A stretch of 64,000 nucleotides of DNA from Paracoccaceae bacterium (GTDB lineage: Bacteria; Pseudomonadota; Alphaproteobacteria; MPNO01; UBA830). The first letter of the stretch is position 1, and every line of letters begins with the position of its first letter. The translations under genes were made by a program, and so were the position numbers. Below the pieces are notes generated by a model that was not told where the DNA came from, ran no database searches, and worked only from the letters and a program-made list of their open reading frames with translations. Shown here piece by piece: positions 43,195 to 63,385 of the stretch. The stretch is from assembly GCA_047638395.1 (NCBI GenBank), contig JBLIMV010000002.1:162787-226786 (forward strand). The letters are read 5' to 3'.

Positions 43195-45270
43195 GTGTTG
43201 GTGCGTATAGAATATCCGAGCAATGAAGCGGCACGCGTCGAGGCGCTTCATCGATTTAGAATACTGGACACCCCCCCTGAAATAAATTTCGACCGCGTTA
43301 CAAAGCTGGCGAGCGATATCTGTGAAGCGCCGATTGCGCTGATTTCACTGATCGACAGCGAACGGCAGTGGTTCAAATCGAAAGTCGGTCTGGACGCTGG
43401 AGAAGCCCCGAGAGACATCGCATTTTGTGCACACGCGATCCTCGACGACGAATTGTTCATTGTGCCGGATGCAGCCACCGATGACCGGTTCAAAGACAAC
43501 CCTTTCGTCCTGGGATTCCCGCACATCCGCACCTATATGGGCGCGCCACTCATTACCAAAGCAGGCTATCGGCTCGGAACGCTTTGCGTCATATATCCTG
43601 AGATTACGCCCGTTCGTGAATCGTGGAAGGAGCGCATAACCTCCCTTGCCGCGATTGTGGTCGATGAACTCGAATGCCGGGTTGCGCTGGCAGATGTTGA
43701 AGAAAATGCGGACAGATCCCGCGACATCGTCGAAACCGCCGGTGAGTGGATCTGGGAAACCGACGAAAATCATCGATACATCTATCATTCCGACAACGGC
43801 CCGAGACGGATATTTCCGACATCTCAACTCCTCGGACGAACGCGCTGGGAACTTCCCGGCGTTGATACCGACATCGCCCAGTTTGACGTACTCAAGGAAG
43901 CGCTCGACCAGTATCAACCGTTCCGTGATTTTGAATATGTTTTTACAGACGCACAGGGGAACCATCAGCATCGGAAAGTAAGTGGCAATCCGGTCTTTGC
44001 TGAAAACGGCGGTTTCAAGGGCTATCGTGGAACATCGGCAGATATCACGGAGCGGGTAGAAACGTTCGAAAACCTGAAAGCAGCGACAGTCGCGGCAGAA
44101 CAGGCAAATAATGCGAAATCGGCGTTTCTCGCGAATATGAGCCACGAGCTCCGGACACCGCTTAATGCGATTATCGGCTTCTCGGACATGATGCTGAGCG
44201 CAACACCGGATGCTTTCTCAAAACCGGAATATGTCGAGTATACGAATGACATCAAGCATTCCGGCGAAGACCTGCTGAAAATCCTGAATGACGTTCTTGA
44301 CCTTTCGGAGGCCGAAGCCGGTCACGCCGAACTTAATGAAGAGCCAGTTGATGTTGCCGCCATCATCGATACATGCGTGCAACGTTTATTGTTTGAGGCC
44401 GAGGCGGCGAACCTCTTCGTTACCACGCTATATGCAGACGACATACCGCGCCTGGTGGCTGACGACCGCAAACTGAAACAGATCCTGGTCAATCTGCTGT
44501 CCAACGCGATTAAATTTACACCATCGCCGGGCGTGATAACCGTATCCGCCGATTTTTCGGCCGACTCCGGACACCTGATCAAGGTGTCCGACACCGGGAT
44601 CGGCCTGGCATCTGAAAATTTTGATAACGTCATTGCCCCTTTCAAGCAACTGGACTCCGGTTTTAACCGGAAATATGGCGGCACCGGTCTTGGCCTGCCC
44701 CTCGCCGTTTCATACACGGAGATGCATGGGGGCACCCTGAGGATCTTGAGCGAGGTGGGCGCCGGCACAACGGTCGAAATCCGGTTACCACCCGACAGAG
44801 CCATTCAGTCGGGAGATCAGGGCATGGATGCAACCCTGTCGCTGGACGGGGCTATGCAGCTGATTTCCGGGGAGGAACAGGCCCGGTCCTGCATCATTAC
44901 GGACCCGAGATTGCCGGACAATCCGATTGTTTATGTCACGCCTGAATTCGAAAAACAGACAGGCTACCCACAGGACGAGGTTATCGGCCGCAATTGTCGT
45001 TTTCTCCAGGGACCCAAAACAAGCGCGGGCGCCATCGCAAGCATCAGACACGCAATAGATAATGTTCTGCCGGTGACCACCGAAATTCTGAACTACCGGA
45101 AGGATGGCAGCCCCTTCCGCAACGTCGTGTCAATTCGACCAACGTTCGATATCCACGGCAATGCGGTCTCTTTTGTGGCGATCCAGTCGATAACGGACGT
45201 GGACGGATCGGACGTGCATGATGCAGGCCAGATCGACGATCCCGAAGACGGAGCCGGCACGCCCCACTGA
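43195..45270 (+). CDS. GAF-PAS-HisKA-HATPase sensor histidine kinase with a C-terminal LOV domain
   Basis: H-box MSHELRTPLNAI. G-box GGTGLGLP. C-terminal LOV signature GRNCRFLQG within an ...IVYVTPEF...LNYRKDG... context. GTG start. Confidence 0.75.
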   Translation: MLVRIEYPSNEAARVEALHRFRILDTPPEINFDRVTKLASDICEAPIALISLIDSERQWFKSKVGLDAGEAPRDIAFCAHAILDDELFIVPDAATDDRFKDNPFVLGFPHIRTYMGAPLITKAGYRLGTLCVIYPEITPVRESWKERITSLAAIVVDELECRVALADVEENADRSRDIVETAGEWIWETDENHRYIYHSDNGPRRIFPTSQLLGRTRWELPGVDTDIAQFDVLKEALDQYQPFRDFEYVFTDAQGNHQHRKVSGNPVFAENGGFKGYRGTSADITERVETFENLKAATVAAEQANNAKSAFLANMSHELRTPLNAIIGFSDMMLSATPDAFSKPEYVEYTNDIKHSGEDLLKILNDVLDLSEAEAGHAELNEEPVDVAAIIDTCVQRLLFEAEAANLFVTTLYADDIPRLVADDRKLKQILVNLLSNAIKFTPSPGVITVSADFSADSGHLIKVSDTGIGLASENFDNVIAPFKQLDSGFNRKYGGTGLGLPLAVSYTEMHGGTLRILSEVGAGTTVEIRLPPDRAIQSGDQGMDATLSLDGAMQLISGEEQARSCIITDPRLPDNPIVYVTPEFEKQTGYPQDEVIGRNCRFLQGPKTSAGAIASIRHAIDNVLPVTTEILNYRKDGSPFRNVVSIRPTFDIHGNAVSFVAIQSITDVDGSDVHDAGQIDDPEDGAGTPH

Positions 45271-45337
45271 CCCCCCAAACCCTCCGCCGCGCAAAGATTG
45301 GCAGGCGCAGGGAACATCGGAAAAATCTGATCGGTCC

Positions 45338-45392
45338 GGCGGAAATTGGTGGACCTGAAGGGACAAAGTTCGAACTCGTTGTTTGATGAGCT
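45338..45392 (-). repeat. degenerate copy of the tRNA-Ala 3'-end/att repeat (direct repeat of 60611-60680)
   Basis: Shares tccggNggaaattggtggaSc...tcgaactc with the 60.6-kb tRNA fragment, in the same orientation. Confidence 0.45.
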
Positions 45393-45679
45393 GGCGGAAT
45401 GGAACGTGGCTTTGGGTGGCTCTCGAGTTGAAACAATATCGTCTATCAACTTCGAAGGCAGCCCGGATACTGAAGCAGGAGCCTGCTTCGGCCCTGAAAG
45501 CAGATATTAGGCGTCAACGTGCCTGGTGACTGTTTCTGATCCATTGTGGATATTGTCATTCAGATGTGAATACAGTGGATTCCACGCGGGCGTGTCGCCC
45601 ATATAGCCCGAACGGGGAATAGTTATTGAAGTACCGAGGCGAAGCGGCGTAAGTATAGAGATGCGTATCGGGTCGAAAA

Positions 45680-47383
45680 TTGCAATCTCGTAGCTTCCTT
45701 CCGAGCAGTCTTGCGTTCGTTATCTGGAGTATCGCGTTACTGAACCCAGTTCCGGCGTTATCCCAACTTCAGCAACTGCCGAGCAGCGCCGAGCCCGGCC
45801 GACAGGCGCCGCGGCCGCCCGAATTGCCGCCCGCGCTCACCGACCTGGAGTGGAGCGTGCAGCTGCCGCCAGGCGCAGAACCACCGCCGTCATTGAAATC
45901 GGAACCGCTGGAGCTCAAGGATCTTCGCCTGACCGGCGTGACCGCCTATTCGCGCGCCCAGCTTATTGACCTTTTCAGAGACGATCTCGGCAAAACGATC
46001 ACGTTTGAGCGATTCTATGCGATCGCGCGGGCGATACAGCAGCGTTACCGCAGAGACGGATATATTCTGAGTTTTTCCTACGTTCCGCCGCAATCGGTCG
46101 AAGATGGCGTCTTTACGATTGCGGTTGTCGAAGGATTTGTCGAAGCGGTGCAGATAGGCGATGTCGAAGGCACCCTGAAGGACACGCTGGCCAACGCGCT
46201 TAGCCCCATCACAGCGATCAGACCGCTAAACGTCCGGACGCTGGAACGTTACCTGCTCCTGGCGAACGACCTTGCCGGGGTCAAAGTCACCGCCGTGCTG
46301 CGACCGTCGAAATCAACCCAGGGCGCGACTGTCCTGGTCGCCAAGGTTCGCCGCACACCTTTCGGTGGCGGCGCCTCGATCGACAACCGGTCATCGGATT
46401 TTACCGGCCCATGGGGTTCGAGCGTTTCAGCGTCCGCGAACTCCCTGCTCGGGACCGGCGAACGGCTGGGTCTGACCCTGTCGGAAGCGGGCGGGCTAAA
46501 GGAAAAGAAGGCTGTGTCGGCGACCTATCAGCAACCCTTCGGTACAGAGGGCCTGCGGATCGATTTAGGCGTCAGTCAAACCGACAGTGAACCCGGCTCG
46601 ACCCTCGCGGAATTCGAGGTCGAAACGTCGACCCTGGAACTCACCTCGGATATTTCCTATCCCGTCATCCGCTCACGGGCGGAAACCCTGTCTATCGGTG
46701 GTGGTTTTACCTTTCGAAATGCCGAAGTCGACCTGCTCGGCCAGCCATTTAACCAGGACCGGCTTCGGCTGCTCCGGGCAAACGTGAATTACAGCAATGG
46801 CTCGGTGCTGGGTGGCAGCACCCGGATCATTCTGGGTGCGACCCAGTCGATGCAGATCTGGAGCTCTACAGACCCCAGCACGGACACAACATCCCGCGGC
46901 GACGCCGATATGGATTTTGCCAAACTGAATCTGGATGTCGTCTATGCCCGACCGATTGGCGCGGGAGTAACGGCACAGATCTCGATGACGGCCCAATACG
47001 CGACCCGCCCGACCCCGGCGTCCGAGGAATTCTCGCTCGGCGGAGACGGGTTTGGCCGGGCCTATAATTCCGGCGAACTGAGCGGCGAAGACGGTATCGG
47101 GTTTTCGGCGGAATTCAGCCGCAGCCTCGGCATCCGGCACCCGCAACTTCGCTACCTGAATGCCTATGGCTTCTACGATATCGGCAAGGTGTGGGACCGG
47201 GCATCGGCGTCGTCCCTGGGACCCGCGGATTCGCTGGCATCTGCCGGTGCCGGGCTGCGCGCGGGTTTACCATTCGGGTTAACCCTGCGGCTTGAATACG
47301 ATTTCCCGCTGACCCGCGAACCGAGCCACCAGAACGGCGAAAAGCACGGACGGCTCTTCTTTTTTGCGAGCTGGACGTACTAG
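45680..47383 (+). CDS. two-partner-secretion outer-membrane transporter (TpsB; ShlB/FhaC/HecB family)
   Basis: TTG start. Signal peptide. POTRA region. C-terminal beta-barrel ending in an aromatic residue. 567 aa. Confidence 0.75.
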   Translation: MQSRSFLPSSLAFVIWSIALLNPVPALSQLQQLPSSAEPGRQAPRPPELPPALTDLEWSVQLPPGAEPPPSLKSEPLELKDLRLTGVTAYSRAQLIDLFRDDLGKTITFERFYAIARAIQQRYRRDGYILSFSYVPPQSVEDGVFTIAVVEGFVEAVQIGDVEGTLKDTLANALSPITAIRPLNVRTLERYLLLANDLAGVKVTAVLRPSKSTQGATVLVAKVRRTPFGGGASIDNRSSDFTGPWGSSVSASANSLLGTGERLGLTLSEAGGLKEKKAVSATYQQPFGTEGLRIDLGVSQTDSEPGSTLAEFEVETSTLELTSDISYPVIRSRAETLSIGGGFTFRNAEVDLLGQPFNQDRLRLLRANVNYSNGSVLGGSTRIILGATQSMQIWSSTDPSTDTTSRGDADMDFAKLNLDVVYARPIGAGVTAQISMTAQYATRPTPASEEFSLGGDGFGRAYNSGELSGEDGIGFSAEFSRSLGIRHPQLRYLNAYGFYDIGKVWDRASASSLGPADSLASAGAGLRAGLPFGLTLRLEYDFPLTREPSHQNGEKHGRLFFFASWTY

Positions 47384-47498
47384 TCCCAAAATTTTCGTTT
47401 TTCATCTATTTTTTCAATGACTTACAAGACCTGAAGTCCTGCCGCCGCTTAACGCTGCGTAAACCTAGATTGTTCATACTAAATCCGTACCGAACCGG

Positions 47499-50400
47499 TT
47501 GTTCGCTCAGGATTTATCAGTGGTCGAGAGTTCGAAGTATTCACGCGCGCGTTCAGGACGCGGGAAACGGCACCGGCACTCGTCCGGATGGCGACGGCTG
47601 AGCAATGCTGGCGAACTGTGCCTGCGGCTCGTCCTCGGTGCGGCACTTACCGGTTCGCTACCGATCCAGGTTTTTGCGAACCCGCAGGGCGGCGCCGTCA
47701 CGGAGGGATCAGCGACGATCCAGCAATCGGGCAACCGTGTCGATGTTCACCAGGCCACCGACCGAGCCGTAATCGACTGGCGGTCGTTTTCGATCGCCCC
47801 CGGTGAGATCACCCAGTTTCACCAACCTTCGGCAGGCTCTATTGCGCTGAACCGCGTAACAGGCGCCGACCCGTCCCGCATTTTCGGCACGTTGCGTGCG
47901 AATGGCCGCGTCTTTCTGATCAACCCCAATGGAATCATGTTCGGTGCCGGGTCCCGCGTGGACGTCTCCGGTCTGGTCGCGACGACATCCAATATCCGCA
48001 ATGAGGATTTTATGGCCGGACGGATGGAATTTTCCATCCCGTCGCTGAATCCGCAGGCTTCCGTCGTTAATGAGGGGGATATCAGTATCGCGGATGCCGG
48101 ATATGCCGCCCTTGTCGCACCGCATGTACGAAATTCCGGCGTCATAAACGCCCGGCTCGGCCGGGTCACACTGGGCGCCGCGGATGCCTTCGCCATCGAC
48201 CTCTACGGCGATGATCTGGTGACCTTTCGGGTGGGTGTCGGGCGAACACCGGTAGATGCCGACGGTAACCCGGTCGACAGCCTTATTGATAACCAGGGCA
48301 GCATTCTGGCCGGGGGCGGAATCGTGCGGCTCGCGACACACAATGTAGAAGCCGTGGTCCGCAACGTGATCAATACCGATGGCGTGATCTATGCCAATAC
48401 GATCGAGCGACGGGACGGAAAGATCATCCTTGGTGCGGCCGGCAAGGGCGCTATTTCGGCGAAGGGCGAACTCTCCGCGACGGGCGGGTCAATTGAAATC
48501 GCGGGCAACGAAGATATTTCGCTGTCCGGAACACGTATCGCGGCAACTGATGTGGCAATCAACGCCGATGCCGACAAATCCGGCGCCGGCGACCTGAACG
48601 CCGGGACAAGCGGCGGCGATGCGATCCTGACCGATATCGATATCGATACAGCCGCGGGCAATGATGAAGGCGGCCGCGTGGTGATAACCGGCGACCGTGT
48701 CGCCATATTGGGCGCTTCGACTATCGATGCTTCGGGCGAGGCGGGCGGCGGCGAAATTCTCATCGGCGGCGATTTTCAGGGCAATGGCGTAACCCGAAAC
48801 GCCGATGCGACAATCGTCGGCGAAGATGTCCGCCTGAAGGCCGATGCGCTTGAGTTCGGCAACGGCGGGCGCGTGATTTTATGGGCGGACGGATTTACCC
48901 GCTTTCATGGCGCGATCTCGGCTATCGCAGGGCTGACGGCCGGCGATGGCGGCTTTACCGAGGTGTCGGGCAAACAGAACCTCGACTTCCAGGGCAGCGT
49001 GGATGTGACCGCCGCGGCGGGCGAAATCGGCACGCTTCTTCTCGATCCCGTCGATATTATCGTTTCAGCAGACAACACGGATGGCGCCACAGGCACGGGT
49101 CTGGGCAGCATCCTGTTCGCAGACGCTCCGGGCCTGAATCCCTGGAACGTCAGTCCGGCAGCTCTGGATGCCGTGAGCGGCAATATTCTGTTGCAGGCAA
49201 CCAATGACATCACGATCAGCAACGACATCAACCTGACCACACTGGGTGCGACATTCACGGCGACGGCGAATAACGACATCATCGTCAATGCCGGCGTGAC
49301 AACCAATAATGCGGCGATCACCCTGACGGCCGATGACGATGGTAGCGGTGTTGGCGAGCTTACCATTGCCGCCAGCCAGACCGTGACCAGTGGTAATAAC
49401 GCCGTCAACATCTCGGCCAACGACGTCGCGTTTACGGGCGGGATCGACAGCGGCACCGGCACAACCACGATCCTGATATCCGATGGCGGCACCATAAAAC
49501 TCGGCGGCACCCCCAGCGGCAACATGACCATTTCCGGGTCGGAACTTCAGAACATTACCGCCGCCAACCTGATCATCGGCGACGCGACGAACGGCAATAT
49601 CGAGGTCAAGAACGTCAGCGCGGCGGAGAGCAACAATGTGGGCACGGTCACGCTGAACGCCACCAAAGCAGGGGCCACCGTCGATATGAGCACCGGTGGC
49701 GGCAATGTCTTCAATGCCCTGGTGATCAATGCCGACGCCGCGGTTGCGACAAAAATCCTGACCACCGATACCGGCGGGCTGACGATCAATTCAGGCAACG
49801 GCGTAACGATTTCAGACAATGTAACGTCAGCCGGTGCGACAGTCATCGACGCCGACACCGACAATAACGGAACCGGTACATTCACGGTGACCAGCACATT
49901 CGCGCTGAACACGGCGGGCAATTCGTTGTCCATCACTGCGGACGACATCAACATCGCCGGCACCATCAACACTGGCGCCGCGGCGACCACGATACTGATC
50001 TCCGACGCGGGAACGATCGGATTCGGCAACAGCGCCCGGAATATGACGATATCCGGCGCAGAGCTTCAGAATATCACGGCCACAGGCCTGACCATCGGCG
50101 ACGCGACGAATGGCGACATCACGGTTGACGGCATTTCGGCGGCAAACAGCAACAACATCACCGGCACGGTCACGCTGAACGCGACGAATGCCGCCGCCTC
50201 GATTTCGATTTCGAACGCGGGGTCGACGTTCAACGCGCTGACCGCCAACGCGGCCAACACCATTACAGGCAATATTCCGCTGGTGACGGATACCGGCGCG
50301 CTGACACTGACTGCAGGGGCCGGAATTACGTTCAACGACACGGTTACAACAGCCGGCGCGGCTGTTTTCGATGCCGACAGCGATAACAACGGCACGGGCG

Positions 50401-53400
50401 ATTTCACGCTGAGCAATGCCCTCAATACATCAAACAACACGCTGACGATCACGGCCAATGACGTCGTGCTGTCCAACACGATCAATACCGGCACGGCCGC
50501 CACGACAATCCTGATCTCCGACGGCGGAACCATCGGGCTGGGCGCGACAGCGGGTGGCATGACGATTTCCGGCGCCGAGCTGCAAAACATCACCGCGACC
50601 GGGCTGACCGTCGGGGATGCCACCAGCGGCAACATCACGGTCAACGGGATCACGGCGGCAAACAGCAACAATATCTCGGGTACGGTCACGCTGAATGCGA
50701 CACAGGACAACGCGACCCTCTCGTTTTCGGGCGCCGCCTCGACATTCAACGCCATTGCCGCGAATGCGGATGACGGGATCAGTATCAGTCAGAATATCTC
50801 AACCGATGTCGGCGGTCTCGCGCTCGACGGCGATGCCGACAACGCGGCGGATATCAACGACAATCTCACGTTCTCCGCCGGGGTGACACTGAGCAGTTTC
50901 GGAAATATCACGCTTGATGCGACGATCGGGAATATGTCCGGCGCTGGCGCGCTTACACTGAATGCGCGCAGCGGGTTGACCTTCAATGACAGCCTGGCGA
51001 CCGCCGGGGCAACAGCGTTGAACGCCGACACCAACAATAACGGCAGTAGTATGCTGACCCTCGCCGCAGGCGCTGCACTCGCCACCGGCGGCAACACCCT
51101 GTCGATAACGGCAAGTGACATAAACGTCTTGGGCACGATCACCAGCGGGGCTGCAGCAACCACAATCCTGGTATCCGCGGGCGGCAGCATCGGGCTTGGC
51201 GCCACGGCCGGCAGCATGACCATCGACGGGACCGAGCTGCAGAACATCACGGCGAACGGCCTCACCATCGGCGACACGTCCGCCGGGAATATAACCGTCA
51301 ACGGCATCACAGCAGCCAACAGCAACAACATTACCGGTACGACGTCGCTTGTAGCAGGCAGCAATGGCGCAGCAGTCACCTTTGCCACGGCGGCCTCCAC
51401 GTTCAATGCGCTAACGGCCAGCGGTGACAATCGCGTTATCGTCAATGTCGCCATCACCACGGATGCGGGCGACCTGGACCTGAACGGCGACCTCGACAAC
51501 GCTGCCGATACCAACGACGACATCGCCATAGCTGCAGGCCTGACCCTGACCTCCGCCGGGTCGATCAAACTGGCGGCGACGAACACGGGCATATCGGCAA
51601 GTGGTGCGCTCACGCTGAATGCACAGAGCGGTGTGACGCTGAATGACAGCCTGGTTGTCGGAGGTGCCGCGGTCATCGATACCGATACGGACAATAACGG
51701 GATCGGCGATTTCACGATCAACGCATCGCGCACACTGACGACGAACAACAACACGTTGACGATCACGGCAAACGACCTGGCCCTTTCGGGTGCATTGAAC
51801 AGCGGATCTGCGGCGACCACGGTCCTGACATCCGACGGTGCATCGATTGGCCTTGGCGCAACAGCCGGGGGCATGACAATCGATGGTGCCGAGCTTCAGA
51901 ACATCACAGCGACAGGCCTGACCATTGGAGATTCGACAACCGGAGGCATCACGGTCGACGGGATTACCGCGGCCAATAGCAACAATATCACGGGGACCGT
52001 CACGCTGAACGCGGCGGCCGACAATGCCACCGCATCGTTCGTGACAACGGCATCGACTTTCAATGCGCTCGACGTCAATGCGGATGACCGGATCTCGGTC
52101 AACGTCAACATCACAACCGACATCGGAGATCTCGCGCTGGATGGCAACGTGGATAACGCCGCAGATGTGAACGATGATATTGCGTTTGCTGCAGGTGTCA
52201 CGCTGTCTTCCGCTGGATCTCTCACCCTCGATGCCACGACCGGGAACATGACAAGTGCCGGGGGGCTGACCCTGAACGCCAATAACAGCGTTACCCTGAA
52301 TGATACCCTGACGACGGCCGGCGCGACGGTTATCGACGCCGATGACGACACGAACGGTAGTGGTACCTTCATCGTCGTTGCATCAAAAACGGTGAATTCC
52401 ACCAATAACTCCCTCCAGATCGTTGCGAACAAAATCGACCTTGCCGGGGAGCTGAACAGCGGCACCCAGTCAACCACGTTGACGGCAACGAACGGCGCCG
52501 CCATCGACCTCGGGTCCGCAACCGACATCGCTGCCAATACGTTCGAACTCTCGAACAGCGAACTCCAATCCATCACGGCGGCAAATCTGACAATCGGCGA
52601 TGGGACGGCCGGCGCGATCACGGTATCCGCTGACGTAACGCCCGGTAACGCCGCGGGCGCCAACGTCATCACACTCAATCTTGTCACGGGTTCGACAATG
52701 ACCGCCTCGGCCGGCGCCATAATAGAGACGAACCTGTCGGTCGTGGCCGCCGGTGCTGTCACATTCAGTGCCGCAACCACGGATACCGACGTAATCGCCA
52801 TCGATACCTCCACCGGGGATATCGCCTATACAGATATCGACGGGTTCACAGTCGACACCGTTGGCGCTGTCACCGGTGTCGACACGGCGGCTGGCGCAAT
52901 CACGCTCATCGCGACGACCGGCAATATCATTGTGGCCAATACCGCAGCCGCCAACGATATCGGCGCGACGGGCCTCATCACGCTCAAGGCATCCGCAGAC
53001 AACGCGGCAATCAATATACTGACGGGCGCAGACACTGAATCTACGGGCGGCGCGCACAGCTACACCGCCGACGACATCGAAATAAGCGGAACGATCACGG
53101 CAACCGGACAGGACGTTACGCTGGCTTCAAGCACAGCCGGCGACGCCATCGATGTGGGCGACCCCGGCGGCGGGGGCGACAACGTGGCAAATACGCTGGA
53201 ACTTGCGGGCGCCGAGCTACAGAACATTACGGCGACCAACCTGAATATTGGTGGCGCTGCCGCCGGCAATATGACGATCGAGGGCATTTCTGCCGCCAAC
53301 AGCAATAACATCTCGGGTCTGGTAACGCTTACCGCCAACGGAAACGGGTCGACGGTGACATTCCAGAACGCGGCGTCGACGTTCAACGCGCTGAGTGCTC

Positions 53401-54668
53401 ATGCCGACGACCGGCTGGCCGTGGACATCGATGTCACGACCGACGTCGGTAATATGACCCTGGACGCCGATTCCGATGATGCTGCCGATACCAATGACGA
53501 CCTGGTATTTGCCGCAGGTGTGACAATAACGTCGGCAGGCTCCTTGACGCTTGCCGCCACGACAGGCGGAATCACCGGCACCGGTGCATTGACGCTGGAT
53601 GCTCAAAACGGGCTCTCGGTCGGCAATGCCTATACCGGTTCCGGGAATGCCGCATTCAACGCCGATAGCGACGGGAACAGCGCGGGTAACTTCACTGCGA
53701 CAACGATGGCTCTCGGTGCCAACACCCTGAATGTTACGGGTGCGTCGGTAAATACCGGGACCAGTCTCGCGGCGGGGACCACGACGCTGAACGGTGCCGT
53801 CACCGGATCCGGCCTGACTGTCACGGCTCTTACCCTCACCGGCGCCAGCGCGACATTGACCGGCACAACCATTGGCGGGCAGTCAGGAAACGATGCTGCT
53901 GCAGCGGCGACGATGCCCGACGCCGCGACCCACACCATCAATGGCTGTCAGAACACCCGTTGTGTTGTCGCGGTTGTCACGCCAACGCCGCCGCCCGACC
54001 TGGACAATGTGCAGGTCGATACAGGCGGCACAGGCGGCATCGGTACAGGTGGTACAGGCGGCAGTTCGGGCGGAACGGACACTGGCGGTAGCACCGATAG
54101 CGATACGTCGGGCGGCGACACTGGCGGTTCAGAGACCGGCGACACGAGCGGCGGAGACACTTCGGGCGGAGACAGCTCTGACGGCGGCGGATCTACCACC
54201 AATGACAATAGTGGCGGCGGCACATCCGGCGGAGACACCTCATCCCCCAATGGGAGTTCCGACGACGTTGCCGGCGGAGACAGCAATGTCGGAGACAGCG
54301 GCGGCGGATGGAGCGACGGGTCGTTCAATGCCGCATCCGGCGATGTGCTGTTGACCGGATCGGTCGGCAATTTTGAGGTGTTCTTCGAAGCGCTCAAGGA
54401 AGATGGCGCAAGTACCCTGGAATTGCTGGAGGCATCGGAAAATCTCGAAAACACCGAGCTCGCATCGCTTGTAAAAGCGCTGGGCGACATTCTGGGTGAA
54501 TATGAATTCGTCTCGACATCGATCCCGACGAACGCATTTGACGACAAGGCGACAACCCTGCTGCCCGGCCTTCTCACGTTCGATCCCGCCGCGACTGGCA
54601 ACGATACCGCCACCTCCCCCGCATCGCGCAAATATCAACCGCCGAGCTTCGGCCGGTTCCAGTTCTAA
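47499..54668 (+). CDS. large TpsA exoprotein (filamentous-hemagglutinin N-terminal TPS domain, 2389 aa, beta-helical repeats)
   Basis: TPS/haemagg_act domain (NPQGG...IDWRSFSI...QFHQPSA...ALNRVTG...INPNGIMFG). TTG start as given by the ORF track; GTG 47520 is an alternative. Confidence 0.8.
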   Translation: MFAQDLSVVESSKYSRARSGRGKRHRHSSGWRRLSNAGELCLRLVLGAALTGSLPIQVFANPQGGAVTEGSATIQQSGNRVDVHQATDRAVIDWRSFSIAPGEITQFHQPSAGSIALNRVTGADPSRIFGTLRANGRVFLINPNGIMFGAGSRVDVSGLVATTSNIRNEDFMAGRMEFSIPSLNPQASVVNEGDISIADAGYAALVAPHVRNSGVINARLGRVTLGAADAFAIDLYGDDLVTFRVGVGRTPVDADGNPVDSLIDNQGSILAGGGIVRLATHNVEAVVRNVINTDGVIYANTIERRDGKIILGAAGKGAISAKGELSATGGSIEIAGNEDISLSGTRIAATDVAINADADKSGAGDLNAGTSGGDAILTDIDIDTAAGNDEGGRVVITGDRVAILGASTIDASGEAGGGEILIGGDFQGNGVTRNADATIVGEDVRLKADALEFGNGGRVILWADGFTRFHGAISAIAGLTAGDGGFTEVSGKQNLDFQGSVDVTAAAGEIGTLLLDPVDIIVSADNTDGATGTGLGSILFADAPGLNPWNVSPAALDAVSGNILLQATNDITISNDINLTTLGATFTATANNDIIVNAGVTTNNAAITLTADDDGSGVGELTIAASQTVTSGNNAVNISANDVAFTGGIDSGTGTTTILISDGGTIKLGGTPSGNMTISGSELQNITAANLIIGDATNGNIEVKNVSAAESNNVGTVTLNATKAGATVDMSTGGGNVFNALVINADAAVATKILTTDTGGLTINSGNGVTISDNVTSAGATVIDADTDNNGTGTFTVTSTFALNTAGNSLSITADDINIAGTINTGAAATTILISDAGTIGFGNSARNMTISGAELQNITATGLTIGDATNGDITVDGISAANSNNITGTVTLNATNAAASISISNAGSTFNALTANAANTITGNIPLVTDTGALTLTAGAGITFNDTVTTAGAAVFDADSDNNGTGDFTLSNALNTSNNTLTITANDVVLSNTINTGTAATTILISDGGTIGLGATAGGMTISGAELQNITATGLTVGDATSGNITVNGITAANSNNISGTVTLNATQDNATLSFSGAASTFNAIAANADDGISISQNISTDVGGLALDGDADNAADINDNLTFSAGVTLSSFGNITLDATIGNMSGAGALTLNARSGLTFNDSLATAGATALNADTNNNGSSMLTLAAGAALATGGNTLSITASDINVLGTITSGAAATTILVSAGGSIGLGATAGSMTIDGTELQNITANGLTIGDTSAGNITVNGITAANSNNITGTTSLVAGSNGAAVTFATAASTFNALTASGDNRVIVNVAITTDAGDLDLNGDLDNAADTNDDIAIAAGLTLTSAGSIKLAATNTGISASGALTLNAQSGVTLNDSLVVGGAAVIDTDTDNNGIGDFTINASRTLTTNNNTLTITANDLALSGALNSGSAATTVLTSDGASIGLGATAGGMTIDGAELQNITATGLTIGDSTTGGITVDGITAANSNNITGTVTLNAAADNATASFVTTASTFNALDVNADDRISVNVNITTDIGDLALDGNVDNAADVNDDIAFAAGVTLSSAGSLTLDATTGNMTSAGGLTLNANNSVTLNDTLTTAGATVIDADDDTNGSGTFIVVASKTVNSTNNSLQIVANKIDLAGELNSGTQSTTLTATNGAAIDLGSATDIAANTFELSNSELQSITAANLTIGDGTAGAITVSADVTPGNAAGANVITLNLVTGSTMTASAGAIIETNLSVVAAGAVTFSAATTDTDVIAIDTSTGDIAYTDIDGFTVDTVGAVTGVDTAAGAITLIATTGNIIVANTAAANDIGATGLITLKASADNAAINILTGADTESTGGAHSYTADDIEISGTITATGQDVTLASSTAGDAIDVGDPGGGGDNVANTLELAGAELQNITATNLNIGGAAAGNMTIEGISAANSNNISGLVTLTANGNGSTVTFQNAASTFNALSAHADDRLAVDIDVTTDVGNMTLDADSDDAADTNDDLVFAAGVTITSAGSLTLAATTGGITGTGALTLDAQNGLSVGNAYTGSGNAAFNADSDGNSAGNFTATTMALGANTLNVTGASVNTGTSLAAGTTTLNGAVTGSGLTVTALTLTGASATLTGTTIGGQSGNDAAAAATMPDAATHTINGCQNTRCVVAVVTPTPPPDLDNVQVDTGGTGGIGTGGTGGSSGGTDTGGSTDSDTSGGDTGGSETGDTSGGDTSGGDSSDGGGSTTNDNSGGGTSGGDTSSPNGSSDDVAGGDSNVGDSGGGWSDGSFNAASGDVLLTGSVGNFEVFFEALKEDGASTLELLEASENLENTELASLVKALGDILGEYEFVSTSIPTNAFDDKATTLLPGLLTFDPAATGNDTATSPASRKYQPPSFGRFQF
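49440..53640 (+). repeat. about seven tandem coding repeats (510-680 bp each) within the TpsA gene
   Basis: Recurring ...TTILISDGGTIGLG...MTISGAELQNITATGLTIGD..GNITV.GI.AANSNNITGTVTLNAT...STFNAL... blocks. Confidence 0.7.
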
Positions 54669-54677
54669 GGTGATGAG

Positions 54678-57254
54678 ATGACCAGAAACCGCAACGGGCT
54701 CAACCCGTTCGCCTCACTCCTGTTTATCGGCTGTATCGGGCTATGGACGCCTTCGGTCGCCAATGACAAGCGCCAAGCCGCCCCGCCCGCAGCCAACCCC
54801 GCAGCGGACAAGGCCGATTATCGCACGCTCCTTGACGACGGCATCAGGAATAACAGTCTCGGCCGTCACGGCGTCGCCGAAAAATCTTTTCGGGCCGCGC
54901 TGCTGCAATGCCAAAGCCTGCCTTCCGCGGAATGTGGCGATATTACCCTGCGGCTTGCCCTGGAGCTCAGCAATCAGGAAAGATTCGAGGAAGCCGACCT
55001 GCATTTCGCGCGGCTTGAGAAGACGATCCGGGCGTCTACAATCAGCCTTGGCCTGCCACGATATCTGACCTATCGCGCGATGGATTATACGAACCGGCGG
55101 GATTTTCCCGAAGCGATGAAATTTATCTCGGACGCCAATCAGAAGCGCAAAGCACTGCTCAAAACCGCCTTTGAGAATGCGCGTTCGGCAGATCCGGCGG
55201 CGAAGCAACAGCTCGACCGCACGATGATCGAGCTCGCACACGGCCTGTATGTCCAGGCCAGCATCAGCTTCAAAATGGGCAAGACCGCAGACGCAAAGGT
55301 GACGGCACATCTGGTGCGCGCACTTGTCAGCAAGATAAAGAACATCCCCGATTGGTGGATCGCGTTTGCGGACGCGTTGCTCGCAGACATAGAGCTGCGC
55401 GACGGAAATATCGAAGCTGCTGAAAAACGATTGCGGAGCGCCCTTAAAGCGAAGCAGGTAGCGCTTGGCAACACACGGGCAGTGGCGCTTTCCTATATGG
55501 CGCTCGGCGCAATCTTTCACGGATCGAAGCGCGATAAAGACGCCATTGATACATCGCGTCCCGGGCTTTCAATTCTGCGTGGCGAACTGCGCCAGGCGCC
55601 CGGAATAAGCATCGAACGCCTCGAGCCTTTTCTCGAAGCGTCGCTCAAGATAGCGGAACAAAATCCCGGGCGACGGGCAGAACTCCATGGCGAGATGTTT
55701 GCCGCAGCCCAACTTGCGCGCACATCCCAGACCGCCCGCACCGTCGGACAGATGGCAGCGCGCTTTGCAACCGGGCGGCCCGAGATTGCCGAAATGGTCC
55801 GCCGCCTTCAGGTTCAGACGCAGCTGCGGGACGAGCTTCGTATCACGCTCGGCCGCTCAATGATCGCGTCTGCCGGCAAGGCCAATTCGCGCGGGATTAA
55901 CAAGCTCAAAGCGTCCTATTCAAAGGCCGCAACCAGCGTCGGCACGTTGTCGAAAAAAATCGAGACGCTGTTTCCCAGTTACTCCGAACTGGTGAGCCCG
56001 ACCCCGTCCAGCGCCGAGGCTGTCCAGGCAACGCTCAAAGCCGATGAAGCCCTGGTCTATTTTGTGTTCGGCGACACCAGCGGTTACGTGTTTGCCGTCC
56101 GGCCCGACGGGATAACAGCAGCCCGCGTGAATATCCGCCGCTCTGAAATAGGCGGCCTGATACGCCAATTGAGAAAACCCTTCGAGAAAACGGGTGCGCG
56201 CATCGCCCCCTATGACCTTCCAGCGGCATACGATGTGTATCGCAAGCTGCTGGACCCTGTTGAGCAGGCTCTTTCGGGCGCGAAACATCTTATCATTGTA
56301 TCGTCAGGCGAACTCTTGAGCCTGCCGTTTCCGCTGCTGGTCTCGCGACCGCCTGCTGATGGCCCGGACCGGTACCGCTCGGCAGACTGGCTGATCCGGC
56401 GATACGCCTTCACCCAGATGCCCTCGGTGCGCACCTTCACCACGTTCAGGCAAACAGTCCGGCCGTCGGCGGCACCCAATCCATTTATCGGTTTCGGCAA
56501 TCCTGCTTTCGAGGGGAAAGCATCGACAGCGGGGATCGCAGCCCTGTCTCAGCACTGTCAGTTGGAGGCTTCGCTCCCGCCGGGTCTGCTCCGCGGCCTT
56601 GCACCGCTGCCTGACACCGCCGTCGAATTGACCCGCGTCGCCGCAACTCTGAAGGCCGGGCAAGAAAATGTGATCCTCGGGGCCGACGTCACCGAACAAC
56701 GTTTACGCAGCCTGCCGCTGGATCAGTACCGGGTTGTCTATTTCGCGACGCATGGATTGCTGCCGGGAGAACTGCGGTGCCAATCGCAACCTGCCCTCGC
56801 GCTGTCCCCCGCGACGCAGATCTCGCCAACCCGAACGGAGGACGGCCTGCTGGAGGCAAGCGAGATTGCGGGTCTGAAGCTCGATGCCGATCTCGTCGTC
56901 CTATCGGCATGCAATACCGGCGGCGGCGGCAGCGGGAAACTGGGCGGCGAATCCCTGTCGGGTCTCGCCCGCGCTTTCTTTCAGGCGGGGACGCGCTCGG
57001 TACTTGTTTCGCACTGGCAGGTCGACAGTGTTGCCACGACGCGCCTGATGACCCGGACATTCGGACATATCGGCAAGGCGGATCGGCGCCATACCGCGCA
57101 AGCGCTTCAACGGGCCCAGCTCGACCTGCTGCGGAACACCGAAACCGCGCACCCCTATTTCTGGGCCGCCTTTACGCTGGTTGGCGAAGGACGGGACCTG
57201 AAGACTGACCCGCGTTCTCCGCCGCAGAAGCAAATCGGCATGTCCTCCGAATAG
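54678..57254 (+). CDS. exported TPR-repeat + CHAT-domain (caspase-like) protease
   Basis: N-terminal signal/lipoprotein-like peptide (LLFIGC). TPR-like helical N-terminal half. C-terminal CHAT His/Cys dyad context (VVYFATHG ... VLSACNTGGGG). Confidence 0.7.
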   Translation: MTRNRNGLNPFASLLFIGCIGLWTPSVANDKRQAAPPAANPAADKADYRTLLDDGIRNNSLGRHGVAEKSFRAALLQCQSLPSAECGDITLRLALELSNQERFEEADLHFARLEKTIRASTISLGLPRYLTYRAMDYTNRRDFPEAMKFISDANQKRKALLKTAFENARSADPAAKQQLDRTMIELAHGLYVQASISFKMGKTADAKVTAHLVRALVSKIKNIPDWWIAFADALLADIELRDGNIEAAEKRLRSALKAKQVALGNTRAVALSYMALGAIFHGSKRDKDAIDTSRPGLSILRGELRQAPGISIERLEPFLEASLKIAEQNPGRRAELHGEMFAAAQLARTSQTARTVGQMAARFATGRPEIAEMVRRLQVQTQLRDELRITLGRSMIASAGKANSRGINKLKASYSKAATSVGTLSKKIETLFPSYSELVSPTPSSAEAVQATLKADEALVYFVFGDTSGYVFAVRPDGITAARVNIRRSEIGGLIRQLRKPFEKTGARIAPYDLPAAYDVYRKLLDPVEQALSGAKHLIIVSSGELLSLPFPLLVSRPPADGPDRYRSADWLIRRYAFTQMPSVRTFTTFRQTVRPSAAPNPFIGFGNPAFEGKASTAGIAALSQHCQLEASLPPGLLRGLAPLPDTAVELTRVAATLKAGQENVILGADVTEQRLRSLPLDQYRVVYFATHGLLPGELRCQSQPALALSPATQISPTRTEDGLLEASEIAGLKLDADLVVLSACNTGGGGSGKLGGESLSGLARAFFQAGTRSVLVSHWQVDSVATTRLMTRTFGHIGKADRRHTAQALQRAQLDLLRNTETAHPYFWAAFTLVGEGRDLKTDPRSPPQKQIGMSSE

Positions 57255-57417
57255 GCCAGCGAATTGCGCCGTAATCCCTGAATTCAGCGCTTTGTGGTTA
57301 ACCGCCCTTAACCATTTCGCTTCAGGAACGCTTAAGACCTGTTGCTTATGGTTTCGTCATAACCTGCTCAACCGGGCCAACCGGTGGGCCACATAAGACC
57401 AACAAAGGAGCGATGAG

Positions 57418-58146
57418 ATGAAGCGGATGATCCAGACCAGTATGGCAGCGATGCTGCTCGCGACGACGGCCTTTTCGGCACACGCCAAACAGGGCGCCTA
57501 TGAAATGGTGGTTCTCCACGTAGAGGGAACCGCGCTGAAACGTGGCGCTGTTATCGATGGAAACCAGACACTGACGCTTAAGAGCGGGGCCAAGGTCACG
57601 CTGGTGGGCGCAGATGGAAAGACCGTAACCGTTCAGGGTCCGTCGTCGGGCAAACCGGCCGGACGTGGCAGCAACGGCGCGAAATCCTCCGGCAAGGTTG
57701 CGGCTATTCTCGGCGCATTGCTGTCCAACGAAGAGCGCTCTACCCGCGCCCTCGGGGTTGTCCGCTCCGCCAGTGCGACCGGCTCGGAAACATTGCCCGA
57801 CGCATGGGCCGTGAACGTGGGACAGTCCGGCACGAAATGTGTGACTGCAGATGTCGTCAAATTATGGCGCCCGGATGCAACCGGTGCCGCAAAACTGCAA
57901 ATTCGCAAGGCACAGAGCGCTCACAGCGCCAAGGCAGATTGGCCTGCCGGTCAGGCGTTCCTGCCGATAAACGCGAAGACTTTTCAGTCCGGTCAGAACT
58001 ATATCATCAGCGTGAATGGACGTAGTTCTGAAATGAAGTTCAACGTCATGCCGGCTGGACTGAACAATCCGACCGAGCAGGCTGCATGGATGGCTCGCCA
58101 CAATTGCCGGGACCAGGCGCTCGCCATGGTCGACGGTATTCGGTAG
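57418..58146 (+). CDS. secreted hypothetical protein
   Basis: Signal peptide MKRMIQTSMAAMLLATTAFSAHA. AGGAG RBS. No recognisable domain. Confidence 0.5.
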   Translation: MKRMIQTSMAAMLLATTAFSAHAKQGAYEMVVLHVEGTALKRGAVIDGNQTLTLKSGAKVTLVGADGKTVTVQGPSSGKPAGRGSNGAKSSGKVAAILGALLSNEERSTRALGVVRSASATGSETLPDAWAVNVGQSGTKCVTADVVKLWRPDATGAAKLQIRKAQSAHSAKADWPAGQAFLPINAKTFQSGQNYIISVNGRSSEMKFNVMPAGLNNPTEQAAWMARHNCRDQALAMVDGIR

Positions 58147-58225
58147 ATGCATTGAGGCGGACCGACACCCATATTTCTGGATGGTCAGCGTCGCCGCCGA
58201 ACAATTCCGACAATCTACAAGCAAT

Positions 58226-58256
58226 CTCAGGGCGGGATCTTTTCTCCCGCCCTGAG
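58226..58256 (+). terminator. stem-loop (probable terminator) after the secreted-protein gene
   Basis: 12-bp perfect stem CTCAGGGCGGGA-tcttttc-TCCCGCCCTGAG. Weak U-tract. Confidence 0.4.
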
Positions 58257-58276
58257 GTATTTCCGGTGACGCCGTA

Positions 58277-60574
58277 ATGCTCAGGTTGTTCAGACAGAAC
58301 CCAGCCCTCAATTACATCCTGATCGGGATACTCTGTGCGGCAGGCAGCCTTATGTCGCCAAGGGCATTTTCCGTCCTCGAATTCATCGAAAACTGGCTGG
58401 CGGACCTCCGCCTGACCAGCATCGCGCCGCCGATGGAAACTCATCCGGATATCGTCGTATTTACGATCACCGAAGACACCCTGGCCCAGTATCCATATCG
58501 CTTTCCGCTAGACCGCAGCATGCTCGCCGACGCGGTGAAGCGCTTCAATGCCGCCGGGGTCAAGGCGATCGGCATGGACGTTCTGTTCGATCAGCCGACC
58601 GAAACGCAAAAAGACAACCGACTGGCCGAGGCGATTGCCGAAAGCCGGGCCCCCGTCGTCGTCGGATGGGCATCCGGCGAAGAAGGGCTGACAGACAAGC
58701 AGGTAGAATACCTCCGGAGCTATCTGCCCGAAGCAATTCATGCACCGTCCAACCTGGTAAAGGCCCCCGGGGACGGCACCGTCCGGTGGGTGTATCCAGG
58801 CACCGTCACACCCAATGGATATCGGACGGCATTCGCGCCGGCACTGGCAGAAGCCGGCGGCGTAAAACCCACCCGCGAGACCCGGGATCTTTATTTCCGA
58901 AGCGGCGTGGACGGCGGCACGGCTCCCTTTCGGGTTTTCCCGCTCCATTTGCTGCCGAACCTCCCGCCACAATGGTACGCCGACAAGATCGTGTTGATCG
59001 GCGCTGATTTGCCGAACGAAGACCGCCACAGAACGCCTTTTGCAGCATTGCTCGGAAATGACGCGGGTTCATTGCCGGGTGTTGTTGTGCACGCCTTTGC
59101 GATCGCTCAGTTGATCGACGGAAAAACGTTCGATCGCCAGAATCTGATCATAGAATTGATTGCCGCCATCGTCGTCGCCGGGCTGGGCGTCTGGCTCGCC
59201 CTTCTTGGCATAGGGCTCGTTGCCAAGCTGGCGATGGCGGCGCTGGGAATCGCCATCATCTGGGGGAGCGGTTTCGCGCTGTTTTACGTGGCCAATGTAA
59301 TGGTGCCGATCTTTACCCCGAGCATGGCATTTGTAACGGCAATCGGGATAAGTACGGCTCTGGTCGGGCATTTCCACCGCCAGGAAAAGAAATTCGCCGA
59401 AGCGATGGTGCGCCGCCGGAATGAATCGCTCCACAAAATCGTCGAAAACAGTTTCGATGCGATCGTGGTCGCGACATCCGACGGCGAGATTAGATCGACC
59501 AACTCATCGGCGGATTTGGTTATGGGCTGGCACCCGGAAGATATCATCGGGTCGCAGATCACCGAGCACTTCCCCGACGTCGAGGAACTCAGCGAAGACT
59601 TCCTCGAACGCGACAAGCAGTACCGGCGAACGTCGAAGGGCGAGATCCAGCCACTCGAAATCGAATGTGCCCGCGCCGACGGCACACCGTTTACGATGGA
59701 GCTTGTCGTTTACACAGCGCCAGTGTCGGATCTGTCTGGAACGACCAACCTTGCCGGCGAACGTGTTTCCTATATTTACTCATTCCGCGACATTACCGCC
59801 CGCCACATGGCGGAACAGGCGCGCGAGGAGGCTCGCCAGCAAGCCGAAGCCGCCAACCGGGCAAAGACTGAATTCCTGGCAAACATGAGCCATGAACTCC
59901 GCACACCGCTGAATGCGATTATCGGGTTCTCAGAACTGATGCGGACGGAAGCGCTTGGGCCATTGGGGTCGCCCCAGTATCTGGAATACATGAACGACAT
60001 CAACGGCAGCGGCCAGCAACTTATCCAGGTCATCAACGATATTCTCGATATGTCTAAAATCGAGGCCGGGGAGCTGACCCCAATGGAAGAGGAATTCGAT
60101 TTTGTAACCGCCGCAGACACGTCCGTCCGACTGGTCGCGGACAGGGCCCAGAAAGGCGAGATAACTCTATTGAACACGGTTCCGGCCGACCTCCCGCTCC
60201 TCCTCGCCGATGAGCGAATGATCAAACAGATATTGCTGAACCTGCTGTCGAATGCGGTGAAATTCACACCCGAAGGGGGAATGGTGGAGCTCAGTGCCGA
60301 AGCGAGCTCTCTCGGTCTTGTTTTCTCCGTATCCGATACCGGTTGCGGCATCCCGGAAGATAAGATGGACGTTATCCTCGAACCCTTCGGTCAGGCCGAT
60401 ATGTCCCTGCAGCGCAACTACGAAGGCACCGGCCTTGGCCTGCCGCTGGTCAAGGCGATGGTCGAACTGCACGGAGGCACCCTGGAGATCTTAAGCCGAG
60501 AAGGCAAAGGAACCACCGCGACTGTCCGTATGCCCGCGAGCTGCCTTCTGGAAGACCGACGAAAAATAGCGTAG
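58277..60574 (+). CDS. CHASE2-PAS-HisKA-HATPase sensor histidine kinase
   Basis: N-terminal TM, periplasmic CHASE2-like domain, multi-TM block, PAS, H-box [12 protein letters not shown]. Paralogous to the 43195 kinase. Confidence 0.75.
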   Translation: [765 protein letters not shown]

Positions 60575-60626
60575 CGAACCTGCTTTGTAGCGGGTTTCAC
60601 AACTATCAACGCGATCCGGGGGAAAT

Positions 60627-60680
60627 TGGTGGAGCCGAGGAGGATCGAACTCCCGACCTCAGCGTTGCGAACGCTAGGGT
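60627..60680 (-). tRNA. tRNA-Ala(CGC)-like 3' fragment (anticodon arm to CCA); probable att site rather than an intact tRNA
   Basis: Minus strand reads UAGCG-UUCGCAA-CGCUG, AGGUC, GGGAG-UUCGAUC-CUCCU, CGGCUCC-A-CCA (U70 present). The upstream 5' half does not form acceptor or D arms. Confidence 0.5.
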
Positions 60681-62175: not shown

Positions 62176-62178
62176 GCC

Positions 62179-63293: not shown

Positions 63294-63385
63294 TGCAAAC
63301 CGCCAAAAAAGAAACCCCGGCGCAGCAACGCCGAGGCTTCAAATCTTTTCGCGCTCTATCCCCCGTTTAAAAAGGATCAAGACAG

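Follow-up and report, generated by a model that had tools for sequence, protein, structure and literature searches.

Two probable successive insertions at one tRNA-Ala(CGC) gene of an uncultured marine alphaproteobacterial lineage: a two-partner secretion block and a younger integrase element

How did a block of two-partner secretion (TPS) genes come to lie between the broken end of a tRNA gene and an imperfect copy of that same end? The question is raised by a stretch of 64,000 nt of contig JBLIMV010000002.1 (assembly GCA_047638395.1, Paracoccaceae bacterium), hereafter called the window, in which (i) the 3' part of a tRNA-Ala(CGC) gene lies on the minus strand at 60.6 kb; (ii) a degenerate copy of it lies at 45.3 kb; (iii) the space between them is taken up by five genes, among them tpsB and tpsA; and (iv) a tyrosine integrase gene starts just outside, the window ending inside the young element to which this gene belongs. 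Judging from the alignments described below, this arrangement is probably the outcome of two successive site-specific insertions into one tRNA-Ala(CGC) gene, located on the minus strand and adjoining yggT. As for their order, it is shown that the TPS block came first and the integrase element later, and that the TPS block already adjoined an intact tRNA gene before the second insertion, because there are contigs (L003 and L031) that carry the TPS block only. An initial annotation of the same DNA had proposed such a tandem integration at tRNA-Ala, with an older TPS island of about 15 kb followed by a younger integrase element: the empty, TPS-only and TPS-plus-integrase states have all been found in public sequence, and the TPS-only contigs bear out the proposed order.

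Loci for comparison were collected (i) by scanning the exact 76-nt tRNA against the GTDB species representatives (3 loci) and the JGI metagenomes (9 loci); and (ii) by an exact look-up of the YggT protein, which gave ten further places. Gene content is based on Pfam, NCBIfam and PHROGs, and tRNA genes were searched for with ARAGORN and Rfam. Positions within the tRNA are numbered after the intact tRNA-Ala(cgc) of L003.

The split tRNA-Ala gene and the young integrase element

No tRNA is called by ARAGORN in the 64-kb window, and Rfam gives nothing there at its gathering thresholds. What is present is a fragment: positions 60675..60627 of the minus strand read AGCGTTCGCAACGCTGAGGTCGGGAGTTCGATCCTCCTCGGCTCCACCA, a sequence that L003 and L031 have, without any difference, as nt 28-76 of their intact tRNA-Ala(cgc). 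It comprises most of the anticodon stem, the loop TTCGCAA with the anticodon CGC, the variable loop AGGTC, the T arm GGGAG-TTCGATC-CTCCT, the acceptor strand CGGCTCC with U70, A73 and the CCA end. The tRNA-Ala 3' half that had initially been placed at 60627-60680 is a genuine fragment, but its tRNA identity starts at 60675, and positions 60676-60680 (ACCCT) are not tRNA.

The nature of this fragment can be read from the two contigs mentioned above. L003, from JGI, carries the exact CHASE2 kinase gene (the last gene of the TPS block) and then an intact tRNA-Ala(cgc) on the minus strand, yggT, a DUF167 gene and folD; L031, from a different sample, has the same arrangement. Up to 60675, both agree with the window at 100% identity; past that point they are unrelated to it, and megablast puts the break in homology exactly at 60675|60676. 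Since they continue past 60675 into the 5' part of the tRNA and yggT, it is shown, at the level of these aligned contigs, that the integrase element is a recent insertion in the tRNA gene, the anticodon stem-loop being its centre and A28 the nucleotide at which host identity returns. The flank downstream of the window fragment is identical to that of the unoccupied allele and, in consequence, the fragment is, on this alignment, the displaced original 3' part of the tRNA. The features at this end of the window are the following:

60612..60675, minus strand: tRNA-Ala fragment plus the 15-nt flank of the old direct repeat (60612-60626), bounded by the homology break 60675|60676
60627-60675, minus strand: displaced tRNA-Ala(CGC) 3' fragment, nt 28-76, identical to L003 and L031
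60676..60852: P arm between the crossover region and the integrase gene, without homology to L003 or L031 past 60675
60853..62175, plus strand: tyrosine integrase of P4/CP4-57-type architecture (PF13356 + PF14659 + PF00589; PHROG integrase)
62179..64000, plus strand: further genes of the young element, for proteins of 233 aa, 81 aa (63048-63293) and 105 aa (63385-63702), and the start of a Toprim primase gene (from 63699)

The first of these stretches has two roles, as the att site of the TPS island on the tRNA side and as the attR of the young element. The integrase combines Arm-DNA-bind_3, SAM-like and catalytic domains with an intact R...K...HxxR...H...Y set (motifs TGARRNE, HILRHS, LLGHSG and SRYTH), and its gene lies 177 nt from the displaced tRNA fragment and is transcribed away from it. 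Beyond the window, the element can be followed in the Logan contig L001, which is identical to positions 60646-64000 and extends 2.7 kb further through the Toprim primase, a DUF3987 helicase and a 176-aa gene; both the primase and the helicase have PHROG matches. The marks of an island are found together in this young element: (i) a displaced fragment of the tRNA gene (tDNA) in the same orientation; (ii) an unoccupied site in otherwise identical DNA; and (iii) an internal tyrosine integrase. Two Logan contigs of sample SRR28416755 both break inside the 49-nt fragment, and such breaks would be expected in the short-k assembly of a repeat or of mixed alleles. Among the viral contigs of IMG/VR there was a single helicase match, at 37% identity, and no match for the tRNA 3' half. 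The loci with the exact YggT show empty sites and a different element, the element of the window being absent from those places.

A reading in which no gene was split, and the 60.6-kb sequence is a complete, functional tRNA with a divergent 5' half, has next to no probability. It owes what appeal it has to a permissive Rfam search, where the end-to-end alignment of the model over 60630-60701 reaches 28.7 bits and so narrowly misses the gathering score of 29. Nevertheless, ARAGORN makes no call; the apparent 5' half of that alignment (GGAATCA...GGGTAAAC...) has two acceptor-stem mismatches, an aberrant D arm and A3:U70 in place of G3:U70, the alanine identity pair; and contigs otherwise 100% identical have a canonical 5' half at that exact position. 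This genuine 5' half, GGGGCCGTAGCTCAGCTGGGAGAGCGC, does not resemble the stretch aligned by Rfam, the score being carried by the 3' part. A functional tRNA-Ala with a complete cloverleaf and G3:U70 is not found at 60.6 kb. The contigs with an empty site already refute the complete-tRNA reading, and the initial statement that the fragment has no matching 5' half stands. The P arm at 60676-60701 mimics a tRNA 5' half and, being only 0.3 bits under the gathering score, it could lead automatic annotation to report a pseudo-tRNA.

Two further elements deserve mention beside the young one. A replication module akin to its own (helicase 77-78% and 176-aa protein 60% identical) occurs in L037 (6676-12102) and in L038. 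In L037, the integrase that accompanies this module is an unrelated one (20% identity), and no tRNA lies at the site; for this reason, integrase and replication modules are considered to be exchanged between such elements. In addition, six JGI contigs with identical YggT (L028, at 1194-1454, and also L030, L032, L033, L035 and L036) hold only nt 1-39 of the host tRNA-Ala, ending ...CAGCGTTCGCAAC, and then foreign AT-rich DNA, in which a complete but different tRNA-Ala(cgc) with G3:U70 follows ~145 nt on, adjoining an 88-aa gene and an integrase fragment. This L028-type element, which is unrelated to the integrase of the window, enters the host gene at the anticodon loop; the gene is not regenerated, and the element supplies a tRNA to replace it. 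Its junction was considered as the missing attL of the window element, given a 12-bp overlap of the identity blocks (AGCGTTCGCAAC), but this is unlikely, as L028 has its own unrelated integrase fragment adjoining the junction.

The TPS block, its distal repeat and the orthologous locus

The interval between the two tRNA-derived repeats measures ~15.3 kb and contains five genes, none of which encodes an integrase or any other recombinase. In this part of the window, the following features can be distinguished:

43195..45270, plus strand: GAF-PAS-HisKA-HATPase-LOV histidine kinase of the chromosomal flank, outside the island (Pfam; C-terminal domain matching the YtvA/LOV blue-light families)
45332..45392, minus strand: degenerate direct repeat of the tRNA-Ala 3' end and its downstream flank, the attR-like distal att site of the TPS island (alignments, shuffles, synteny breakpoint)
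45393..45679: left non-coding island end, of which 45393-45574 is without homologue in other module copies
45680..47383, plus strand: TpsB outer-membrane transporter, POTRA_2 and ShlB (Pfam PF08479, PF03865)
47499..54668, plus strand: TpsA exoprotein of ~2,389 aa with N-terminal TPS domain (Pfam PF05860, NCBIfam TIGR01901)
54678..57254, plus strand: TPR-CHAT (caspase-like) protease with an N-terminal hydrophobic, lipobox-like leader (Pfam PF12770, 1.2e-64)
57418..58146, plus strand: 242-aa protein of no known family with a signal peptide and homologues in every module copy, including those of Niveispirillum and Sphingobium
58277..60574, plus strand: CHASE2-PAS-HisKA-HATPase sensor histidine kinase (Pfam), last gene of the island

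The distal repeat was recognised as follows. The sequence TCCACCAATTTCCCCCGGATCG (60612-60633) recurs at 45332-45353 on the minus strand with two mismatches (20/22 nt), and 0.00 second copies are expected from 100 dinucleotide shuffles. When the 91-nt att region is aligned locally to both strands of the window, the 45.3-kb site is the top non-self match, with a score of 20 against a null maximum of 15.1 +/- 1.2 (largest 18, n=40). The two sites share an identical 13-bp core, TCCACCAATTTCC, at 45341-45353, the CCA end of the copy falling at 45347; upstream of this core, the T-loop motif GAGTTCGA is kept at 45370-45377. The TPS block is, in other words, bracketed by a tDNA 3' end and a cognate direct repeat, with 20/22 nt in the best part and a weaker similarity at the T loop. 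A degenerate copy in the same orientation had been pointed out here by the initial annotation, and its similarity to the 60.6-kb site does exceed chance in the shuffles; regarding the ~17 nt by which that copy was said to run past the CCA, the flank does take part, with clear similarity over 15 nt and weak similarity over ~33 nt.

A larger segmental duplication comprising both histidine-kinase genes was rejected as the source of the repeats: only the HisKA/HATPase cores are alike (47% aa) and the core is internal in the LOV kinase, so that the 3' ends of the genes and their flanks are non-homologous. The paralogous cores of the LOV and CHASE2 kinases, which share 47% aa identity over 250 residues, account for a 73-nt similarity of 82% identity between 44125-44197 and 59873-59945 (repeat family D13, the H-box coding region); it is unrelated to the island repeats.

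Relatives of the source organism supply the comparison that is needed at this point. On the 5' side of the tRNA, yggT and folD are found in all ~20 loci, with 88-100% aa identity; the 3' side differs. Immediately 3' of the tRNA there are (i) in L008, L014, L015 and L018, a convergent homologue of the LOV kinase (57-62% identity) followed by a Rieske oxygenase gene (seen in L018, 89% aa); (ii) in L012, Rieske, SDR and SNase genes (73-89% identity) directly, the LOV kinase being absent; and (iii) in L009, L029 and others, unrelated genes. The first group consists of a contig of a Rhodospirillaceae metagenome-assembled genome (MAG), L008, and three JGI contigs, with the order yggT, intact tRNA-Ala(CGC), LOV-kinase homologue and Rieske gene; neither a TPS block nor an integrase is found at the tRNA-Ala of these four contigs. 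Their order corresponds to the window genes at 43195-45270 and 41357-42640, and it is the one predicted if 45.39-60.63 kb were removed from the window. In L008, L015 and L018, the LOV-kinase homologue directly adjoins the intact tRNA-Ala. At the orthologous locus, the TPS block is therefore absent and the flanks are joined, in other species and not in the same strain. The 3' side of this tRNA-Ala is an integration and deletion hot spot in the lineage, and the 5' side (yggT, folD and their neighbours) is stable.

The sequence that follows the CCA reads ATTTCCGCCGGACC…TTTTCCGATGTTCC at 45.3 kb (…CGGTCCGGCGGAAATTGGTGGA on the plus strand) and ATTTTTCGTTGGGACC…TTTCCCGATCCTCC in the L008-type flank. 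The two are alike over a short stretch, which is consistent with the post-CCA sequence at 45.3 kb being the original chromosomal flank. No second att-like copy was seen at L008, L014, L015, L018 or the other surveyed tRNA-Ala loci. Nor do the alignments show the 45.3-kb sequence as a feature, for instance a terminator, that L008-type genomes share 3' of the LOV-kinase gene, and no third tRNA-derived repeat was found when looked for at the junction between the LOV-kinase and Rieske genes. The P arms of the two islands (60681-60852 and 45393-45680) show no similarity above shuffles.

The G+C content at third codon positions (GC3) falls from 0.73-0.76 in the backbone to 0.67-0.72 in the TPS genes and 0.49-0.62 in the young element. 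This gradient, for which the initial annotation had suggested looking, agrees with a TPS block that was acquired earlier or came from a related donor, and with an integrase element that is foreign and arrived recently.

Some observations on the flanking kinase and on the source may be added. The LOV kinase is variable: it is absent in L012 (35-677); in L019 (1113-1532) there is apparently an N-terminal GAF fragment abutting the tRNA; and its identity from species to species is only 57-62%, against 87-95% for the genes beside it. In the window, its GC3 is 0.605 and its far end has no att-like repeat. The MAG with identical YggT and helicase is labelled "Paracoccaceae bacterium" at NCBI. Its relatives in the GTDB collection, which have the same tRNA and a YggT 94-96% identical, carry the labels Rhodospirillaceae or Alphaproteobacteria, which makes the taxonomic label of the source uncertain.

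As regards the genes of the block, they encode a TPS pair in the usual sense, since a TpsB with POTRA and ShlB barrel domains is adjacent to a TpsA with a TPS domain. The true start of TpsB may lie downstream of the one listed, as the Logan gene call (L006) starts at ~45857. TpsA has internal repeats of ~657 nt (D1-D7) and a Gly/Asp/Ser-rich tract of short repeats near its C-terminus. Between 49400 and 54320 its gene contains 4-6 tandem units with periods of ~516-657 nt and 60-80% identity, and its length among close relatives (1,963 to 2,976 aa) suggests expansion and contraction of repeats. The 242-aa protein has no match in Pfam, NCBIfam, PHROG or PADLOC.

The five-gene module at other loci

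The five genes are found in the same order in L020, L021, L025, L026 and L027, with 72-90% aa identity and in at least three other chromosomal contexts; CHAT homologues 79-90% identical occur in related metagenome contigs. These contexts are (i) in L020, L025 and L027, AOX and/or an abhydrolase downstream, followed by DctQMP; (ii) in L021, L022 and L023, DctM upstream (seen in L021) and a TPR protein and RecX downstream; and (iii) in L026, a TonB-dependent receptor and HemS downstream. Farther away, a replicon of Niveispirillum cyanobacteriorum has the module with the same gene order, and the megaplasmid pMSHV of Sphingobium herbicidovorans has the order CHAT, CHASE2, hypothetical protein, ShlB-family protein and large protein. 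The contexts compared (L020, L021, L025, L026, L027, L039 and L040) range from marine Rhodospirillaceae to Sphingomonadales.

When the borders are compared with the module loci by blastn, homology with the other copies stops at the stop codon of the CHASE2 kinase gene, which leaves 52 nt without homologue at the right end of the island. On the other side, DNA homology stops near the start of tpsB, reaching ~105 nt upstream of it in the case of L026, whose tpsB upstream region is matched from ~45575 of the window. Direct repeats or tRNA-like remnants were not found around the module in L020, L021 and L025, and no tRNA was called in L020-L027. Among the contexts examined, it is only in the lineage of the window that the module lies at tRNA-Ala and is bracketed by tRNA-derived repeats.

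As far as gene order and neighbourhood can tell, the five genes have moved among loci together, as one unit. The initial annotation had named a different, repeat-free context of the TPS locus in relatives as a point that would speak against an island here. Such contexts do exist, in the literal sense; nevertheless, since the orthologous tRNA-Ala locus of relatives is without the module, we read them as evidence that the module moves and not as a refutation. A bolder claim can be built on this, namely that the module is a recombinase-less mobile cassette that would have moved among loci and genomes of marine Rhodospirillaceae by using the integrases of tRNA-targeting elements, and that the tRNA-Ala repeats of the window would be the only preserved footprint of this process and the present tandem a stage of cis- or trans-mobilisation. 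Taken as a whole, this claim is unlikely.

Regarding function, CHASE2 is an extracytoplasmic sensor domain, and TpsA and TpsB act at the outer membrane. Because the five genes strictly co-occur across orders, the cargo is most likely a self-contained cell-envelope system, in which the CHAT protease (predicted to be periplasmic or lipid-anchored) and its partner could process or regulate the secreted TpsA, and the CHASE2 kinase could sense at the envelope. Searches of the cargo with PADLOC, PHROGs and permissive Pfam, and a PDB sequence search of the CHAT protein, returned no defence-system, toxin or solved-structure match, and gave the proteins that accompany CHAT no assigned function. In the literature searched, no publication was found that links CHAT or CHASE2 to two-partner secretion or that describes the association of the five genes.

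Proposed order of events, alternatives and known counterparts

The events can be proposed to have taken place in two steps. In the first one, a circular element carrying the five-gene envelope module would have recombined with the 3' end of the tRNA, the att sites sharing the identical 13-bp core and imperfect homology on both sides of it. From the two junctions, the attP can be reconstructed as …GAGTTCGAACTTTGTCCCTTCAGG-TCCACCAATTTCC-CCCGGATCGCGTTGATAG…. The tRNA would have been regenerated at the yggT side, and the partial copy at 45332-45392 left next to the LOV kinase. Since the reconstructed attP has imperfect arms with respect to attB, the "degeneracy" of the 45.3-kb copy may be original attP sequence instead of decay. 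The recombinase gene of the TPS island would since have been lost, leaving an integrase-less island of ~15.3 kb between att-like repeats, that is to say, a remnant resembling a cis-mobilizable element (CIME). Precisely because the TPS island has no integrase of its own, we infer, rather than observe, that it entered by site-specific recombination at the tRNA 3' end. In the second step, which the contigs with an empty site show to have occurred, the small, lower-GC element with its P4-type integrase and its primase and helicase went into the regenerated tRNA at the anticodon stem-loop, pushing nt 28-76 of the tRNA (60627-60675) and the whole TPS island away from yggT and the 5' part of the gene. 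Each insertion made use of its own part of the tRNA, the acceptor/CCA end with the 13-bp core in the old one and the anticodon loop in the young one. As the 45.3-kb repeat does not contain the anticodon-loop core, the present integrase is probably unable to excise the TPS block, either alone or together with itself.

Several points weigh against this order of events as far as its first step and the regeneration of the tRNA are concerned. The genomes with an empty site belong to other species, with a LOV kinase only 57-62% identical, and no contig of the same species without the TPS block was found. Between the repeats there is no integrase, excisionase or pseudogene remnant, and the intergenic spaces are too short for one. 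In composition, the TPS genes differ little from the backbone. It is mainly 22-35 nt that speak for the repeat, as the T arm of the 45.3-kb copy is only loosely similar, with a scrambled T stem and a 3-nt indel. The modules of relatives lie at tRNA-free, repeat-free loci and, hence, the module is not generally carried by a tRNA-targeting element. Finally, the gene is left unregenerated by the L028-type element at this tRNA, and for that reason its regeneration in the genome of the window cannot be taken for granted.

Some of these points can be turned into alternatives. The 45.3-kb repeat might be the scar of an earlier, decayed element, the TPS module having arrived later between the att sites, for instance by homologous or illegitimate recombination from a related genome. 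Such a later arrival would agree with the tRNA-free and repeat-free loci of the module in relatives, with its lack of a recombinase and with its GC3 close to the backbone; in addition, the ~180 nt at the left end (45393-45574) and the 52 nt at the right end that are without homologue could be leftovers of that other element. It is, in any case, rather improbable: the five genes take up nearly the whole interval, the simplest explanation being that they were the cargo, and no remnant of genes of another element is seen. Very much less can be said for a fortuitous similarity at 45.3 kb, or a conserved feature of the tRNA 3' flank, combined with a TPS block that is ancestral and was lost or relocated in relatives. 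It is true that the convincing similarity is short (22 nt, 13 nt of them exact), that the tRNA 3' flank starts with ATTT or ATTC in other genomes too, and that the block is near the backbone in composition. Nevertheless, none is expected in shuffles, the site is the top one in a two-strand search space of 128 kb, the copy has the last 7 nt of the tRNA (TCCACCA) and the T-loop motif, unexpected for a motif of the flank only, and it stands exactly at the synteny break with the L008-type genomes, which have no second copy. An ancestral block is accordingly disfavoured, and two insertions into one tRNA-Ala gene remain the preferred reading.

Classes of tDNA sublocation were reportedly set out by Williams in 2002. 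It is documented that a regenerated tDNA and a displaced fragment mark the ends of islands, and that tandem arrays occur at tDNAs, 125 of them in Islander (PMC4383910); insertion at the anticodon-centred sublocation characterises a large class of such islands (PMC4383910; preprint 10.1101/2020.11.02.365908). The locus described here resembles the Islander islands (Hudson, Lau & Williams 2015, PMC4383910) in that (i) the tRNA is split by an element with a tyrosine integrase, with a displaced 3' fragment of the same orientation at the island end; (ii) two successive islands lie at one tDNA, the young one of the anticodon-loop class "A" and the old repeat at the junction of T stem and 3' end; and (iii) a small size of ~13 kb, with no phage structural genes, is common among such islands. 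It differs in that only one of the two islands has an integrase, whereas each member of an Islander tandem has its own, and in that the integrase gene adjoins the displaced fragment instead of the tRNA 5' part.

A second counterpart is the CIME, in which att-like repeats are kept and the genes for integration and transfer lost, with later accretion of a second element (PMC5704250). Like the CIMEs and accretions of ICESt1-related elements of Streptococcus thermophilus (PMC5704250), the TPS block retains att-like ends and has lost integration and transfer genes; unlike them, the incoming element used the anticodon loop, a sublocation missing from the 45.3-kb repeat, and no conjugation or mobilisation genes are seen in the available part of the young element. 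With P4-like and CP4-57-like elements, the young element shares the architecture of its integrase, the layout (integrase, small genes, Toprim primase and DUF3987 (YfjI) helicase) and the tRNA target; but it has no relative at sequence level in IMG/VR except the helicase match at 37%, and the nearest replication module (L037) is joined to an unrelated integrase, away from a tRNA. Finally, the TPS pair is like FhaB/FhaC and ShlA/ShlB (reviewed in PMC5422565) in having a TpsB with POTRA_2 and ShlB and an adjacent, large, repetitive TpsA with an N-terminal TPS domain, but pairs of the window type always come with a TPR-CHAT protease, an exported protein of 242 aa and a CHASE2 sensor kinase, and a recognised toxin or immunity pair is absent.

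What is found here is a textbook case of tDNA islands in tandem, to which the natural variants with an empty site lend conviction; its architecture adds nothing new on tDNA integration. Its interest lies in that one tRNA-Ala(CGC) gene of an uncultured marine alphaproteobacterial lineage is documented in four states (empty, singly occupied, doubly occupied and alternatively occupied), with natural metagenome variants that fix the island boundaries to the nucleotide and give the order of events. More unusual are two things met with in passing: the L028-type element, which truncates the tRNA and supplies its own, and the widely conserved, uncharacterised TPS/CHAT/CHASE2 module. Conserved from Rhodospirillales to Sphingomonadales and moved among loci, this module is a reasonable target for functional study.

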